From positions 1,708,514 through 1,772,513 of the forward strand of contig CAWJDT010000001.1 of NCBI GenBank assembly GCA_963841735.1: DNA of 64,000 nt, read 5' to 3'. The stretch's first letter is position 1. The number at the start of each line of letters is the position of its first letter. The translations under genes were made by a program, and so were the position numbers. Below the pieces are notes generated by a model that did not search any database, was not told where the DNA came from, and worked only from the letters and a program-made list of their open reading frames with translations. This stretch comes from an uncultured Actinomycetes bacterium (GTDB taxonomy: Bacteria > Actinomycetota > Thermoleophilia > RBG-16-64-13). Shown in pieces: positions 14,837 to 19,851 of this stretch.

Positions 14837-15208
14837 ATGTTCTGTCCGGGCTGCGGCAAGGAGAACAGTGACGAGGCCGGCTTCTGCGAAGCGTGCGGCC
14901 GGCCACTTGATCTAGAAGGGTCTCGCGTGCCGCCGTATCGCCCGCCGATGCAGGAACGGCTGCCGGTACCGAACATACCTAGCTACCTCGGCTGGGCCGT
15001 CGCGGTGCTCATCCTATTCTTCTGGCCCACCGGCATCGCCGCGGTAGTGTATGCGGCCAGGGTGAACAGCAGGCTCGCCCTGGGCGACGTCGCCGGCGCC
15101 CAGGAGGCATCGCGCAAGGCGAAGATGTGGTGCTGGGTCTCCTTCATCGTCGCCATCGTTGTTGTTGTCCTAGGCATCGTGGTCACCGTCGCGGGCAGGG
15201 GCTTCTAA
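14837..15208 (+). CDS. Zinc-ribbon + CD225/dispanin family membrane protein (copy 1)
   Basis: MFCPGCG...FCEACG, then P.YL.WA...FWPTGIAA.VYA.RV...GD..GA..ASRKAK.W. Confidence 0.85.
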   Translation: MFCPGCGKENSDEAGFCEACGRPLDLEGSRVPPYRPPMQERLPVPNIPSYLGWAVAVLILFFWPTGIAAVVYAARVNSRLALGDVAGAQEASRKAKMWCWVSFIVAIVVVVLGIVVTVAGRGF

Positions 15209-15256
15209 TCGCGGAAGGCTGCGGGCGCAAAGAGTCAAAGTGGATTTGGAGGGGCT

Positions 15257-15631
15257 ATGTTTTGCCCGGGCTGCGGCAAGGAGATAAGTGACTCGGCCAG
15301 GTTCTGCGAAAGCTGTGGCCGGCAACTGGTCGAACTGGGGGTGCCGGAGGGCGCGCAGTACCGGCCGCCGATGCGGGAGCGGATACCGGAGATTCCTGAC
15401 CACATCGGCTGGGCCATCGCCGGGCTCATCCTGTTCTGGCCGACTGGGATCGCGGCGATCGTGAACTCCACTCGGGTGGACAACAAGGTCTTGCGAGGCG
15501 ACATCGACGGAGCGCGGGAGGCCTCGCGCAAAGCCAAGAAGTTCGGCAAGATCTCGATGTGGGTGTGTATTGCGACCTTTGTCATCTACATGGGAGCTGT
15601 CATCCCGTTGATCGCCACGGGAAACTACTAG
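15257..15631 (+). CDS. Zinc-ribbon + CD225/dispanin family membrane protein (copy 2)
   Basis: Same architecture as copy 1, with PDHIGWAI, FWPTGIAA, GDIDGAREASRKAK. Confidence 0.85.
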   Translation: MFCPGCGKEISDSARFCESCGRQLVELGVPEGAQYRPPMRERIPEIPDHIGWAIAGLILFWPTGIAAIVNSTRVDNKVLRGDIDGAREASRKAKKFGKISMWVCIATFVIYMGAVIPLIATGNY

Positions 15632-15680
15632 TCACCTATCCCGTGCGCGGACGCGTCGGCAAAGAGAGCCAGGAGGGCCC

Positions 15681-16103
15681 ATGTACTGTCCAAGCTGCGG
15701 CAAGGCGGTAGGTGACTCGGCGAGCTTCTGCGACTCATGCGGTCGAGAGCTCAGCGGGCTTGGCTCGCCGGGCGTGATGCGGCCACAGCCCTATCAGCCC
15801 ACCTACGAGGCTCCGCGGTACCGGCAGCCACTGCCGGGCCCGGGCTCGAGCACCCCCACCCACCTGGGCTGGGCCATCGTCTCGCTTATCCTGTTTTTCT
15901 GGCCCACGGCCATCCCGGCGATAGTTTATGCGGCCCGGGTGGACAATAGGCTTGCGATGGGCGACATCGCCGGTGCCCAGGAAGCATCGCGCAAGGCCAA
16001 GACTTGGTGCTGGGTGTCTACCGGCATCGCCATCGCGGGCGTGGTGATCGCCTTCGTCGTCTTGTTCATCCTTGCGCTTGTGACGACGACGATCATCTTC
16101 TGA
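15681..16103 (+). CDS. Zinc-ribbon + CD225/dispanin family membrane protein (copy 3)
   Basis: Same architecture, with PTHLGWAI, FFWPTAI.AIVYA, GDIAGAQEASRKAK.W. Confidence 0.85.
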   Translation: MYCPSCGKAVGDSASFCDSCGRELSGLGSPGVMRPQPYQPTYEAPRYRQPLPGPGSSTPTHLGWAIVSLILFFWPTAIPAIVYAARVDNRLAMGDIAGAQEASRKAKTWCWVSTGIAIAGVVIAFVVLFILALVTTTIIF

Positions 16104-16186
16104 ACGGGTGAGTCGCGTTGGCGCCGGCACGGTCGTGGACCCCGGCTGTACGCCCCCCGCCGGCCGCCCCAAGGCCCGATGCGAGG

Positions 16187-16346
16187 AGGCGGCTGAAGAC
16201 CGAAGTCCCGGCCGCCAGGACACACTGGGCGGCGCAATATTTCGTTCTCAGTCGCGTCAATAGCGCTGCTATTCACGCTCCCTGCGTCCTCGTCTTGCGC
16301 TTGCCCACCCGAGTTCTGGCGGCGAAACGTCGGTCTTCAGCAGCCT
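16187..16346 (-). mobile_element. Palindromic MITE/REP-like element (intergenic copy, 160 bp)
   Basis: Terminal inverted repeats AGGC(G/T)GCTGAAGACCGA plus nested internal stems. The reverse complement aligns with 17486-17608. Confidence 0.75.
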
Positions 16347-16363
16347 GCTAGAATAGTCGGGCT

Positions 16364-18118
16364 ATGGCGCGCTTCTACATCACCACACCCATCTACTACG
16401 TCAACGACGTGCCCCACATCGGGCACGCTTACACCACCGCGGCCGCCGACGTGGCGGCGCGGTTCCATCGGCAACTGGGCGACGAGGTCTTCTTTCTCAC
16501 CGGCACCGACGAGCACGGCACCAAGGTCGAGCAGGCCGCCTGCGCCCGGGGCCTCACGCCCAAAGAGCACGTGGACGAAGTGGTGGCCAAGTTCAAGGAA
16601 GTCGCGGCCAAAGTCGGCGCCAGCAACGACTTCTTCATCCGGACCACGGACCCGGAGCACGAGAGATACGTGCAAGAATTTGTGAAGAAATGCTACGACG
16701 CGGGCGACATCTACAAAGGTTCGTACTCCGGCCTCTACTGCCCGGCCTGCGAGGCCTACTATATCGAGGAGAACCTGGTCGAAGGTCTGTGCCCCGACCA
16801 CGGCACCAAGCCCGTCCGCATGGACGAGGACAACTACTTCTTCCGGCTGTCGGCTTTCCAGGACCGGTTGCGGGATCACTACCGGGCGCATCCCGACTTC
16901 GTACAGCCTCGCCACCGCTATAACGAAGCCCTCTCGTTCATCGAGCAGGGCCTGGACGACATCTCCATCTCCCGCGCCACCCTCAAGTGGGGCATCTCAG
17001 TGCCCTGGGACGAGAGTCAGGTCATCTACGTGTGGGTGGACGCGCTGATCAACTACCTCAGCGCGCTCTCGTACGCTCCTGGGCAAGATCTTGTCTCCCG
17101 CTTCTGGCCGGCGAGCTACCACCTCATGGCCCAAGACATCCTCAAGTTTCACGGGATCATATGGCCGGCGCTCCTGATGTCGGCCGGATATGAGCTGCCG
17201 GAACACCTGTTCATCCACGGGTACCTGAAGCTTGGTGGGGAAAAAATGTCCAAGACCCGCGGCAACGTGATGGACCCCTTCCCGCTGATCGAAGAGTACG
17301 GGGCCGATCCGTTCAGGTTCTACTGCCTGCGCGAAGTGAGCTTCGGCCAGGACGGCATGGTGAGCGAGGAGGGCTTCAAAGCCCGCTACAACAGCGAGTT
17401 GGCCAACGAACTGGGCAACCTGCTGTCGCGCAGCACCTCCATGATCGGCAAATACCGAGGCGGCACCGTGCCGATGCCGCCCCCAGGGCTGCTGGAGAAT
17501 GCCGTTTCGCAGCCAGAGCACGATGGGCACGCGCGAGACGCGACCGAGGACGTGGTATCGCGCCGCACAGTGCGCTCTGGCGGCCGGGACTCCGTTCTCC
17601 AGCAGCCCCCAGGCTACGCCGATGCCCCGGAATGCGCGGTGGCGCACGGCGGCTCGCCGCTGGCCGTCGAAGCGACCGCCCTCTGCGCAGCGGTGCGCAC
17701 GCAGCTCGACCAGATGGACCTGAGCGCCGCGCTGGATACCATCTGGGGCTTTGTGCGCCGGCTGAACAGGTACGTGGAAGAGCAGGCGCCTTGGAAGCAG
17801 GCAAAGGAGGCGGCCGCGGAAAGCGCCGGGGGCGCGGATCTGGGCACGGCAACGGGTTCCGCCGGGGTCGCGCTTGACAGCACCCTGTGGGACCTGGCCG
17901 AGGGCCTGCGCCTGCTGTCGGTGCTGCTGTATCCGTTCATACCCCAGACTGCCATGGCCATCCGGGAACGCTTGGGGCTCGGCGACGCCGGCGACCTTGC
18001 CTTGGGGACCGGCGCCGCTGAGGCGCCGCTGCTCTGGGACGAAGCCCATTGGGGCCTGCTTCCCGCCGGTCTGACCGTCGTGGTCGGCGCGCCGCTCTTC
18101 CCGCGCATCGAGGAGTGA
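16364..18118 (+). CDS. metG: Methionine--tRNA ligase
   Basis: YITTPIYYVN..PHIGH, GTDEHG.K, CxxC...CP.H knuckle, YVWVDAL.NY, KMSK, LFPRIE. Confidence 0.97.
   Translation: MARFYITTPIYYVNDVPHIGHAYTTAAADVAARFHRQLGDEVFFLTGTDEHGTKVEQAACARGLTPKEHVDEVVAKFKEVAAKVGASNDFFIRTTDPEHERYVQEFVKKCYDAGDIYKGSYSGLYCPACEAYYIEENLVEGLCPDHGTKPVRMDEDNYFFRLSAFQDRLRDHYRAHPDFVQPRHRYNEALSFIEQGLDDISISRATLKWGISVPWDESQVIYVWVDALINYLSALSYAPGQDLVSRFWPASYHLMAQDILKFHGIIWPALLMSAGYELPEHLFIHGYLKLGGEKMSKTRGNVMDPFPLIEEYGADPFRFYCLREVSFGQDGMVSEEGFKARYNSELANELGNLLSRSTSMIGKYRGGTVPMPPPGLLENAVSQPEHDGHARDATEDVVSRRTVRSGGRDSVLQQPPGYADAPECAVAHGGSPLAVEATALCAAVRTQLDQMDLSAALDTIWGFVRRLNRYVEEQAPWKQAKEAAAESAGGADLGTATGSAGVALDSTLWDLAEGLRLLSVLLYPFIPQTAMAIRERLGLGDAGDLALGTGAAEAPLLWDEAHWGLLPAGLTVVVGAPLFPRIEE
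17486..17608 (+). mobile_element. Palindromic MITE/REP-like element inserted in frame (123 bp, 41 codons) inside metG
   Basis: 14-bp perfect TIR GGGCTGCTGGAGAA/TTCTCCAGCAGCCC, a CCCCCAGG direct repeat overlapping both ends, and homology to 16187-16346. Confidence 0.8.
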
Positions 18119-18175
18119 CGGCGGCCGAGTGAGCCGCCTGCCGGCAGCCCATCGCCGCCCGTCAGCCGTGACCAC

Positions 18176-18982
18176 GTGATGTTCATCGATTCTCACACCC
18201 ACCTGGACCACTGCCGCGAAGGCGCGGCTGAGCTGCTGGCCCACGCCCGCGCGGCCGGGGTGGGCCTTATCATCCAGTCCGGCACCGACCTGGAGCGCTC
18301 GCGCCGCTCGGTGGAGCTGGCGGAACAGTTTCCCGAGGTGTATGCCACCGTGGGATATCACCCGAGCGAAGCAGGTGTGATGGATGCCCGCGGTTGGGCG
18401 GCGATCGAGCGATGGACCGCGAATCCCCGAGTGGTGGCAGTGGGAGAGACGGGGTTCGACTACTACCACGACAACTGGCCTCACGAGGTGCAGAGCGAGG
18501 TGTTTGTGTGCCATATCGAATTGGCCCGGCGCGCCGGGCTGCCGGTGGTGGTGCACACGCGCGAAGCGGCGGAGGACACGCTCGCCACGTTGGCCGAGCG
18601 CGCGGCCGGGCTGACTGTAGTGTTGCACTGTTTCTCTCTGCCGGGGCTGCTCGACGAGGTGGTCGAGCGGGGCTACTACCTGAGCTTCGCGGGCAACGTG
18701 ACCTACAAGAACGCGGTTGACCTGCAGGTGGCCGCCCAGGCGGTGCCGGCGCATCTGCTGCTGTTGGAGACCGATGCGCCTTGGCTGACGCCCATGCCCC
18801 TGCGCGGCCGTCCCAACCGCCCGGGGCTGGTGGCCGGCGTGTATGAGTTTGTGGCGGGATTGCGTGGGGTGGGCGTGGACGAGTTGGCCACGCAGATCGA
18901 GGAGAACGCGAGGACCGCTTTTCCCCGGCTGAGGTCGGAGCCGGTGTCTGGGCCGAACGCCGGGCCGAGGAGCGCGTCGTGA
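18176..18982 (+). CDS. tatD: TatD family hydrolase
   Basis: IDSHTHL, GYHP, VGETGFDY, HTRE, HCFS, ETDAP.L.P.P.RG. Confidence 0.92.
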   Translation: MMFIDSHTHLDHCREGAAELLAHARAAGVGLIIQSGTDLERSRRSVELAEQFPEVYATVGYHPSEAGVMDARGWAAIERWTANPRVVAVGETGFDYYHDNWPHEVQSEVFVCHIELARRAGLPVVVHTREAAEDTLATLAERAAGLTVVLHCFSLPGLLDEVVERGYYLSFAGNVTYKNAVDLQVAAQAVPAHLLLLETDAPWLTPMPLRGRPNRPGLVAGVYEFVAGLRGVGVDELATQIEENARTAFPRLRSEPVSGPNAGPRSAS

Positions 18983-19851
18983 GCCCAAGGGGACCGGGGG
19001 ACGGCCCCGCATCCGGCGAGTCGGCGCTGCGGCAGGTGTCGCTGGCCCGCATCAAGGAGTTCGGCATAACGCCCAAGCGGGATCTGGGGCAGAATTTTCT
19101 AATCGACGACAACATCCTGGGGGTGATCCTCGGTTATCTGCAATGCACCCCCCAAGACGTGGCGCTGGAGATCGGTGCCGGCCTGGGGGTGTTGACCGCG
19201 GCGCTGGCGGGGGTGGCTCGGCATGTTCACGCGTTCGAGGTGGATAGGAGTTTGGAGGCGCCACTGCAGGCCACCCTCCAGGGTGATCCCAAGGTGACGC
19301 TGCATTTTCAGGACGTGCTGAGGGCTCCGCTCGAGGCGCTTGATCCGCTCCCTACGGTGTGCGCCAGCAATCTGCCCTACTCGGTGGCCGGTCCGTCGGT
19401 GGTCGAAGCGCTGCAACGACTGCCGAGCGTGCGCCGCTACTGTGTGATGGTGCAGCGCGAAGTGGCCGAGAGGATGGCCTCCGCTCCCGGCACCAAGGTC
19501 TACGGAGTGCTCTCCGTGTGGGTGCAGCTATACGCCACCATCGAGCGGGTGCGCCCGCTGGCACGGTCGATCTTCTATCCTCAGCCGCACGTCGATTCGA
19601 GCCTGCTGGTGCTTGAGCGTCTGCCGGCCGAGCGTCTGCCGGCGTGCGAGCCGGAGCGGCTGCGAGTTGTTATCCAGGCGGCCTTCGGCCAGCGGCGCAA
19701 GACGTTGGCGAACGCGCTAAGCGCCGGGCTGGGACTGCCTCGCGAACGGGTGCTGGAGGTGATCGGCGAACTCGGCCTGCCTGCCGACGTGCGGGCGGAG
19801 CGGCTTCAGCCGGGGCAGTTTGTGGAGTTGGCCGAGCGGATCCTCGACTGA
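18979..19851 (+). CDS. rsmA: 16S rRNA adenine dimethyltransferase (KsgA)
   Basis: LGQNFL.D, EIGAG.G.LT, NLPY, MVQREVA.R, P.P.VDS, QRRKTL.N. Confidence 0.95.
   Translation: MSPRGPGDGPASGESALRQVSLARIKEFGITPKRDLGQNFLIDDNILGVILGYLQCTPQDVALEIGAGLGVLTAALAGVARHVHAFEVDRSLEAPLQATLQGDPKVTLHFQDVLRAPLEALDPLPTVCASNLPYSVAGPSVVEALQRLPSVRRYCVMVQREVAERMASAPGTKVYGVLSVWVQLYATIERVRPLARSIFYPQPHVDSSLLVLERLPAERLPACEPERLRVVIQAAFGQRRKTLANALSAGLGLPRERVLEVIGELGLPADVRAERLQPGQFVELAERILD

Follow-up and report, generated by a model that had tools for sequence, protein, structure and literature searches.

The stretch of DNA analysed here (the window; 64,000 nucleotides, G000:C1:1708514-1772513) belongs to G000, a metagenome-assembled genome (MAG) of an uncultured member of the Actinomycetota. 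This MAG comprises 2.82 Mb in 8 contigs, has a G+C content of 63%, and is 89.7% complete and 2.3% contaminated. The methionyl-tRNA synthetase gene of the window, metG, contains an in-frame insert of 123 nt, which is a copy of a repeat family dispersed in the genome. Two further copies of the family are inserted in frame in the genes for isoleucyl-tRNA synthetase (IleRS) and for a class I/II, pyridoxal phosphate (PLP)-dependent aminotransferase. The evidence clearly favours the view that the repeat is a 161-bp MITE (miniature inverted-repeat transposable element) derived from an insertion sequence (IS) of the IS5 family, which is presumably tolerated as a disordered loop in the three encoded proteins.

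The metG insert and its repeat family

The metG gene was identified by the Pfam domain tRNA-synt_1g (E 1.2e-105), with Thermus MetRS 1a8h as the best solved relative (E 1.3e-129), and is the sole MetRS gene found in the G000 assembly. The insert begins with codon 375 at position 17486 (GGG CTG CTG GAG AAT = GLLEN) and ends with CAG CAG CCC. An original prediction made for this region described the insert as exactly 41 codons (GLLEN...VLQQP) bounded by perfect 14-nt inverted repeats, with CCCCCAGG repeated 126 nt apart. The translation of the open reading frame (ORF), the complementarity of the two arms, and the positions of both repeat copies agree with this description (Table 1). Over its whole length, the insert can also be aligned with the reverse complement of an intergenic segment (16187-16346), as had been proposed, and the two peptide translations quoted for the matching copies are both present in the ORF list. 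The alignment contains a 36-column gap and one more base, and its mean column identity is 78% (all 193 columns, flanks included). The match exceeds chance, with E values of 3e-12 in blastn and 2.9e-21 in the nhmmer search with the family profile; between the metG and IleRS copies, blastn gave 1e-17. The loss of 36 nt, corresponding exactly to the central hairpin, was thus correctly recognized, while the 'one further base' said to be missing from the coding copy is an extra base of the intergenic copy, whose AGG...CCT span is 160 nt versus a modal 159 nt. The intergenic copy lies 16 nt upstream of the metG start and is flanked by CGAG (16182-16185) and CTAG (16348-16351).

A profile built from six full copies with one iteration of nhmmer revealed 17 strong copies (E < 1e-20) and about 6 fragments in G000. 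The AGG...CCT span had the modal length of 159 nt in 8 of the 17 copies, which corresponds to 161 nt including the outer bases. Pairwise identities ranged from 58 to 85%, with a single duplicated pair reaching 94%; on this basis, the copies in G000 are regarded as old. The subfamily of the metG copy has six members: those in metG, IleRS, and the aminotransferase gene, the copy upstream of metG, and two copies on contig C4. As judged from gene positions given by a crude codon-usage gene finder, three of the 17 copies lie in frame within intact genes, one lies in another frame in a fragment of dnaE, and 13 are intergenic, often 2-50 nt from a gene end. Other coding and intergenic copies, the search for which had been suggested in the original prediction, were thus present, including two further in-frame ones.

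The copy in the dnaE fragment is the only one located inside a gene in another frame. It truncates a second DnaE paralogue that was already in pieces, lying at the end of one of them; elsewhere (C1:1682976), an uninterrupted 1,215-aa open frame carries a DNA_pol3_alpha domain. At this locus (L004, G000:C1:1562492-1576586) there are three copies of the C-terminal part of this second DnaE-type gene; two of them, 94% identical, contain the element at one and the same site, which is empty in the third. An apparently IS21-like istA/istB pair, as read from the ORFs, is located between the DnaE copies.

Comparison with orthologues demonstrated that the insert is a filled site and that most or all orthologues within the genus are cleanly empty, for each of the three genes. 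Nine of the 10 congeneric MetG orthologues that were aligned lack the insert; those of G003, G008, and G011 read ...PAPPP|GYADPPEC... across the site. The DNA junction of the empty site is ...CCCCCCGG|CTAC..., with CCCCCCGG present once in the empty alleles of relatives. The net insertion in metG is 126 nt, i.e. 42 codons, with borders that slide within the 8-nt repeat; this is the clean gap of 42 codons expected for relatives in the original prediction. A soil environmental DNA contig with about 90% identity to metG skips exactly 126 nt (17478->17605), so that neither this contig nor the nine congeners bear out the idea of an ancestral segment. No conserved segment was seen at this site in the other 43 MetG sequences of the alignment. 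For IleRS, the site is covered in 12 of the 15 remaining genomes of the genus, and each of these 12 passes directly from query residue ~778-780 to ~834. Of the three that do not cover it, the match in G007 breaks off at residue 718, that in G011 is to a paralogue of only 29% identity, and in G004 nothing matched. The aminotransferase gene was found in 10 of these 15 genomes, and a clean 56-column gap was present in 9/9 aligned orthologues. Since only a single MetG match and a single IleRS match were obtained in G000, the genes with inserts are presumably the functional ones.

The exception among the MetG orthologues is G006, which carries a 22-codon segment at the same site. Its DNA ends are palindromic and resemble those of the element, AGGCTGCCGGAGGA...TTCCTCGGCAGTCT, and its homology to the element was judged by eye; nhmmer did not detect it as an element, the only scores in this locus being E 0.25-0.43 at other positions. 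Over residues 1-372, the identity of G006 MetG to that of G000 is 87.9%, versus 88.7-93.5% for the other nine congeners. By this measure, G006 is not the closest relative, and either the site was hit twice or an old insertion was precisely lost in the other lineages. A different extra segment, of about 50 residues, occurs in MetG of G003 (L024) in a second variable loop, after the PWKLAK helix, where extra sequence is also present in G005 and G011. This loop is possibly another insertion hot spot.

The three coding copies share the same orientation and the same frame, s0. Their lengths are 159, 159, and 123 nt; all are multiples of three and free of stop codons in this frame, as the original prediction had asked of coding copies. 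Among the 14 remaining copies, 7 are multiples of three and 4 are in addition open in s0 (3/3 versus 4/14; hypergeometric p about 0.05). In the subfamily concerned, one frame of six is stop-free and reads LLE..GS.NSSAI.ATED..SRR...GGR....QQP. The encoded peptide is hydrophilic, rich in Gly, Ser, Asp, Pro, and Arg, and predicted to be disordered. A canonical element of 161 nt plus a 4-nt duplication amounts to 165 nt, or 55 codons. The net insertion in IleRS equals this length; that in the aminotransferase is 56 codons with ambiguous borders.

The AlphaFold2 model of MetG (44-row alignment) has a mean predicted local distance difference test (pLDDT) score of 87.2 and is confident except at residues 383-428 and 542-550. 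The score falls below 50 at residues 383-428, between the helices 335-365 and 432-449, and residues 376-432 correspond to just 2 residues of 1a8h. Model and structure comparison agree with the location originally assigned to the insert, a variable loop that follows helix 1 of the anticodon-binding domain. The MetG insert is accordingly predicted to form a disordered surface loop between helices 1 and 2 of this domain. A fold-compatible loop position is supported in this way for MetG only. Pfam searches of MetG and IleRS revealed synthetase domains and no Hint/intein domain; an insert of 41-55 aa is too short for an intein.

Table 1. Location of the element copies, their repeats, and the host genes in G000 (plain coordinates refer to the window)
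Feature	Location	Strand	Description
metG (methionyl-tRNA synthetase)	16364..18118	+	ORF of 584 aa
MITE copy within metG	17486..17608	+	123 nt, 41 stop-free codons (GLLEN...VLQQP), lacks the 36-nt central hairpin; nhmmer E 2.9e-21
Left terminal inverted repeat GGGCTGCTGGAGAA	17486..17499	+	14 nt, 100% complementary to 17595-17608
Right terminal inverted repeat TTCTCCAGCAGCCC	17595..17608	+	14 nt, 100% complementary to 17486-17499
Direct repeat CCCCCAGG, left copy	17480..17487	+	8 nt
Direct repeat CCCCCAGG, right copy	17606..17613	+	8 nt, 126 nt from left copy
Full-length intergenic MITE copy	16186..16347	sense strand on -	162 nt (canonical 161 + 1 base); nhmmer E 1.3e-40
Expected junction peptides			filled MetG: PMPPPGLLEN, VLQQPPGYADAP; insert-less form: PMPPPGYADAP
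Isoleucyl-tRNA synthetase with insert	G000:C1:617889-621254	-	1,122 aa, insert LLEDGVSPPGHDGHAQDKDAGSGNSSAIAATEDDVSRRTGCSGGRDSVFQQP inside Anticodon_1 domain
Class I/II (PLP) aminotransferase with insert	C1:1547693-1549009	-	439 aa, insert LLNGDASPPERAGYAGEKNAGSANSSAIGATEDVLSRRPVSSGGRGFGVQQP

The surroundings of metG show an ordinary gene order downstream, with a TatD-family gene followed by rsmA/ksgA (RrnaAD) at 18176-19851 and a 4-nt overlap between the two frames. Three tandem paralogous genes (14837-16103) immediately precede the intergenic element, each encoding an N-terminal zinc ribbon fused to a CD225 domain (interferon-induced transmembrane protein family).

Element termini and a candidate IS5-family partner

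Of the 61 genomes of the family, 47, from 13 of 19 genera, gave matches to a profile of the encoded peptide; more than 100 were obtained in G059 and G062. In a class-wide sample, the element was present in 42 of 201 genomes, mainly in the window's own family (26/35) and in one other (12/32). Compared pairs of copies within G062 are 87-96% identical. Twelve copies from G062 and G059 were fetched for analysis of ends and flanks. All 12 are 161 nt long, with the ends CAGGCTGCTGA.../...TTTTTCAGCAGCCTG and terminal inverted repeats CAGGCTGCTGA.../...TCAGCAGCCTG. Their 4-nt flanks are of the YTAR type in 6/12 copies on the left and 5/12 on the right; both sides are identical in 2/12, with a mean of 2.4 of the 4 positions matching. 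The YTAR flank motif is a hallmark of the IS5 group.

The search for DDE_Tnp_1 revealed a multicopy IS of 1,429-1,430 bp in G062, with 9 full-length transposase matches at 99-100% identity, one of them containing a stop codon. Its 389-aa product matched the IS5-family model NF033581 of NCBIfam with 242.6 bits (cut-off 140) as well as the Pfam domains DUF772 and DDE_Tnp_1. One end of this IS, CAGGCTGCTGAAAAAG, shares 15 of 16 nt with the MITE end CAGGCTGCTGAAAAAC (written CAGGCTGCTGAAAAA... in the G062 and G059 copies). The flanks of the IS are of the YTAR type on both sides in 4/4 copies (CTAG, TTAA or TTAG) and identical in 2/4. The element itself is short, multicopy, and without a transposase gene; judging from termini and flanks, it is best read as a MITE of the G062-type IS. 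The transposase of this IS5-family IS very probably mobilised the element, because the IS has the same terminal inverted repeat and the same YTAR 4-bp flanks.

A composite transposon was considered for pairs of inverted elements located 1.4-1.5 kb apart in G062 and was rejected; two such loci share the elements only and not the DNA between them. A mechanism of the RAYT/REPIN type was rejected as well, given that PF01797 was found in 0 of the 61 family genomes, while the same search was positive in 6 of 14 control genomes. At another locus of G062 (L168, G062:C1:3771306-3775055, positions 1106-1167), a different IS of 2,004 bp abuts, exactly at its left end, half an element copy (model positions 2-63), which suggests that this IS was inserted into a MITE copy.

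The following course of events would account for these observations. A non-autonomous MITE family would have spread within a family-level clade of uncultured Actinomycetota, very probably by cut-and-paste transposition catalysed by the DDE transposase of an IS5-family IS. Because a canonical insertion with its duplication comprises 165 bp, or 55 codons, it would never shift the downstream frame. In essential genes, a copy would survive only if its stop-free frame is used and a tolerant surface loop is hit; the MetG loop, the anticodon-binding domain of IleRS, and the aminotransferase would be such sites. The location of the sole other-frame genic copy in an already fragmented DnaE paralogue supports this kind of selection filter. 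The insert would most likely be carried through transcription and translation and appear in the protein as an additional disordered loop, presumably a neutral one; it would then erode by internal in-frame deletions, such as the 36 nt in MetG. The loss of the central hairpin from the metG copy and the apparently larger loss in G006 are consistent with in-frame erosion.

Several observations weigh against this explanation. The partner IS appears to be missing from G000: neither PF01609 nor the G062 transposase had any match (0 each) in the assembly, which is 89.7% complete. A search of G000 by terminal matches revealed no IS with matching ends, only chance-level 12-16-mers and four 'pairs', all with E >= 0.17. 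The ends of a second G000 subfamily (GAGCTCGTGTCGGAA) differ and do not match the IS. Across the 61 genomes, the element occurs in 7/12 genomes with the transposase versus 40/49 without it, i.e. there is no positive association; this is weak evidence, because MAGs often lose ISs. No consistent target duplication was seen in the old G000 copies other than that in metG. The coding copies are without a clean YTAR duplication, MetG having the 8-nt CCCCCAGG repeat in its place, and the net insertion in metG is 3 nt below the expected 161 + 4 - 36. The structure model of the aminotransferase is poor (10-row alignment, mean pLDDT 53.8), so that the loop placement in this protein is taken from the alignment. 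Finally, the hairpin formed by the element is more stable on one strand in 17/17 copies, by a mean of 17 kcal/mol, and contains 85 G-U versus 15 A-C cells. This asymmetry counts against the proposed mechanism, because no strand bias is expected from a DDE reaction on double-stranded DNA.

Hairpin structure and alternative explanations

The predicted fold of the element is one long imperfect hairpin of 58 pairs. Paired cells account for 91.9% of the total, versus 80.2 ± 0.8% in shuffled controls, none of which (0/500) reached the observed value. Compensatory changes were found in 33 of the 58 pairs, versus 11-16 with slid partners. Since the copies of one repeat family are related, the shuffle control overstates the significance and the slid control is more telling. 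Two asymmetric internal-loop motifs in the centre, AAGGACGCAGGGAGC and GCGACTGAGGACG, are nearly invariant. The more stable strand is the mRNA strand in all three host genes, while only 11 of the 17 copies are co-oriented with neighbouring genes. The strand bias may be inherited from the founder or may reflect a role at the RNA level. An additional mini-hairpin of 18 nt, (C/T)ATGTCGCCGGGTGGCGA, is found in two G000 copies of different subfamilies (G000:C4:34978-35150 and G000:C1:435285-435453), at an identical position in the 3' arm of both.

Among the alternatives, the one that survives best, though still improbable, is that the element is a structured RNA selected on one strand, serving, for example, as a processing, stability or regulatory hairpin, so that its presence in mRNAs is functional. 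The strong covariation, the lower minimum free energy of the sense strand in every copy, the excess of G-U over A-C cells, and the conserved asymmetric loops are what would be expected of such an RNA, as is the occurrence of the stable strand in the mRNA for all three coding copies. Pieces of the family were also found in contigs of two RNA libraries, where DNA carry-over is possible. On the other hand, the orientation relative to neighbouring genes is mixed (11 sense, 6 antisense), no T-run was seen by eye 3' of the hairpin, unlike in an intrinsic terminator, and no Rfam match to the element was obtained at E <= 1: cmscan with Rfam 15 of positions 15500-18500 of the window, which include both copies, gave two chance-level matches elsewhere. 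Many of the G-U pairs occupy shared columns and may descend from the founder, and active transposon lineages retain hairpins without any host function.

A more far-reaching idea, which we regard as unlikely, is that the element is not just tolerated and that three of its features are co-adapted for colonising coding sequence, namely a size of 161 + 4 nt or 55 codons, a hydrophilic frame free of stops, and a covarying hairpin specific to one strand; this would extend to coding sequence of all kinds, including essential genes, where deletion of the locus cannot purge it. The strand bias would then point to a single-stranded stage or function (RNA or ssDNA), which could include removal or bypass of the hairpin between the matched codons that flank it, to give the ancestral protein.

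It is very unlikely that the insert is kept out of the protein by removal from the mRNA or by ribosome bypass between the matched codons CCC CCA GG, which would restore the ancestral MetRS. These codons do occur in frame before and after the metG insert, at a distance of 126 nt; the aminotransferase insert is likewise flanked by AGG CTG CTG and AAG CTG CTG, and a very stable hairpin (-78 kcal/mol) lies between the flanking codons. Precedents for bypass are phage T4 gene 60 and the yeast mitochondrial 'byp' elements. The IleRS insert, however, is without matched flanking codons, and the would-be take-off site is not followed by a stop or by a rare codon. Neither bypass nor excision needs the three coding copies to be multiples of three and stop-free in one frame, and in-frame erosion in G000, and apparently in G006, is as for translated sequence.

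The least probable explanation, an ancestral MetG segment lost by relatives or a chimera of the MAG assembly, could draw on the palindromic remnant in G006, which is not the closest congener and whose insertion may be old or repeatedly lost, and on the incompleteness and slight contamination of G000, but it has very little chance of being correct in view of the 16 other dispersed G000 copies homologous to the segment, the lack of a conserved segment in 9/10 congeners and in the other 43 aligned MetG sequences, the precise empty site in the environmental contig, and the improbability of three independent in-frame cases with intact flanks arising as chimeras.

Related repeats, distribution of the peptide, and significance

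Small repeats that are fused in frame to genes, some of them internal to coding sequence, are treated in two reviews, in whose accounts the Rickettsia palindromic elements (RPEs) of Ogata et al. (2000) are the extreme case (PMC10969869, PMC3184786). The original prediction called the present family RPE-like. With regard to in-frame behaviour this was right, because the family is inserted in frame in at least two further proteins. By taxon, and probably by descent, the element is not an RPE; it is best read as a MITE with termini and flanks matching an IS5-family IS of a related genome. As far as RPEs are portrayed in these reviews, the two have in common that they are palindromic repeats of roughly 100-160 bp, both intergenic and coding, which occur in frame in unrelated housekeeping genes at fold-tolerant sites and encode a conserved peptide. 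They differ in the host phylum (uncultured Actinomycetota, with 'Gaiellales' and Thermoleophilaceae MAGs as the nearest named records), in the likely IS5-family autonomous partner and the target motif found here, and in the small share of coding copies in G000 (3/17), with RPEs compared by description only.

The element has several features in common with bacterial MITEs derived from IS5-family ISs: it is short (161 bp) and lacks a transposase gene, it is bounded by terminal inverted repeats and by 4-bp flanks of the YTAR type, its sites are found both filled and empty, it folds as a long stem-loop, and its ends match those of an IS with an IS5-family DDE transposase. Unlike these, its IS is absent from G000, its stems covary between subfamilies, its centre is more conserved than its ends, and its hairpin is strand-asymmetric. 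Similarity to REP/REPIN sequences (RAYT, Y1 HUH) extends to hairpin repeats with compensatory changes, located mostly between genes, but PF01797 is absent from the 61 family genomes and the element is several times the length of a REP. According to the same reviews, repeats fused inside genes also include BOX, RUP, and SPRITE in pneumococcus, BRE in Bordetella, ERIC, the Anabaena MITEs, and QMITE1 in Coxiella (PMC3184786, PMC10969869). These, as characterized there, are likewise small open-frame repeats fused internally or at gene ends; the taxa and sequences are unrelated, and in the present case two apparently single-copy aminoacyl-tRNA synthetase genes are affected. A full-text literature search, with subscription journals outside its coverage, gave no description of such a family in Actinobacteria, in agreement with the original statement that none was known.

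Proteins containing the peptide were also found in metagenomes, where they represent at least seven Pfam families. Internal positions of the peptide were seen in three proteins (P0005, P0006, P0007), which comprise a PAP2 protein, a TrmH methyltransferase, and a membrane protein; in the rest it is N- or C-terminal, and over-calling of gene starts is likely there. In a representative protein library, 118 matches were obtained, mostly to short ORFs. Among all database proteins matching the peptide, most are short ORFs or N-terminal extensions and are probably spurious gene calls through intergenic copies; one of them, P0001, has two copies of the peptide. The count of 118 is no measure of in-frame insertions, because insert-bearing host proteins cluster with the normal families. 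Long frames around peptide matches in relatives are mostly due to an element that lies shortly before a gene start (EF-G-like, EPSP synthase, MobA/MobB) or at a C-terminus (MMPL). A 1,001-aa frame with the peptide at locus L129 contained no Pfam domain. None of the public sequencing runs holds more than 14% of the sampled words, and the organism was not found among them.

For genome annotation, the family is relevant as a source of spurious short ORFs across intergenic copies and of over-extended gene starts where a copy is read through. The hairpin's strand asymmetry merits follow-up. The inserts represent natural loops of 41-56 residues accepted by two class I aminoacyl-tRNA synthetases and one PLP enzyme. 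RPE-style colonisation of coding genes thus extends to a free-living, GC-rich, uncultured clade of actinobacteria. Since a probable transposase and a target motif can be named here, unlike for the RPEs as presented in the reviews, the process is open to experimental test in this group.

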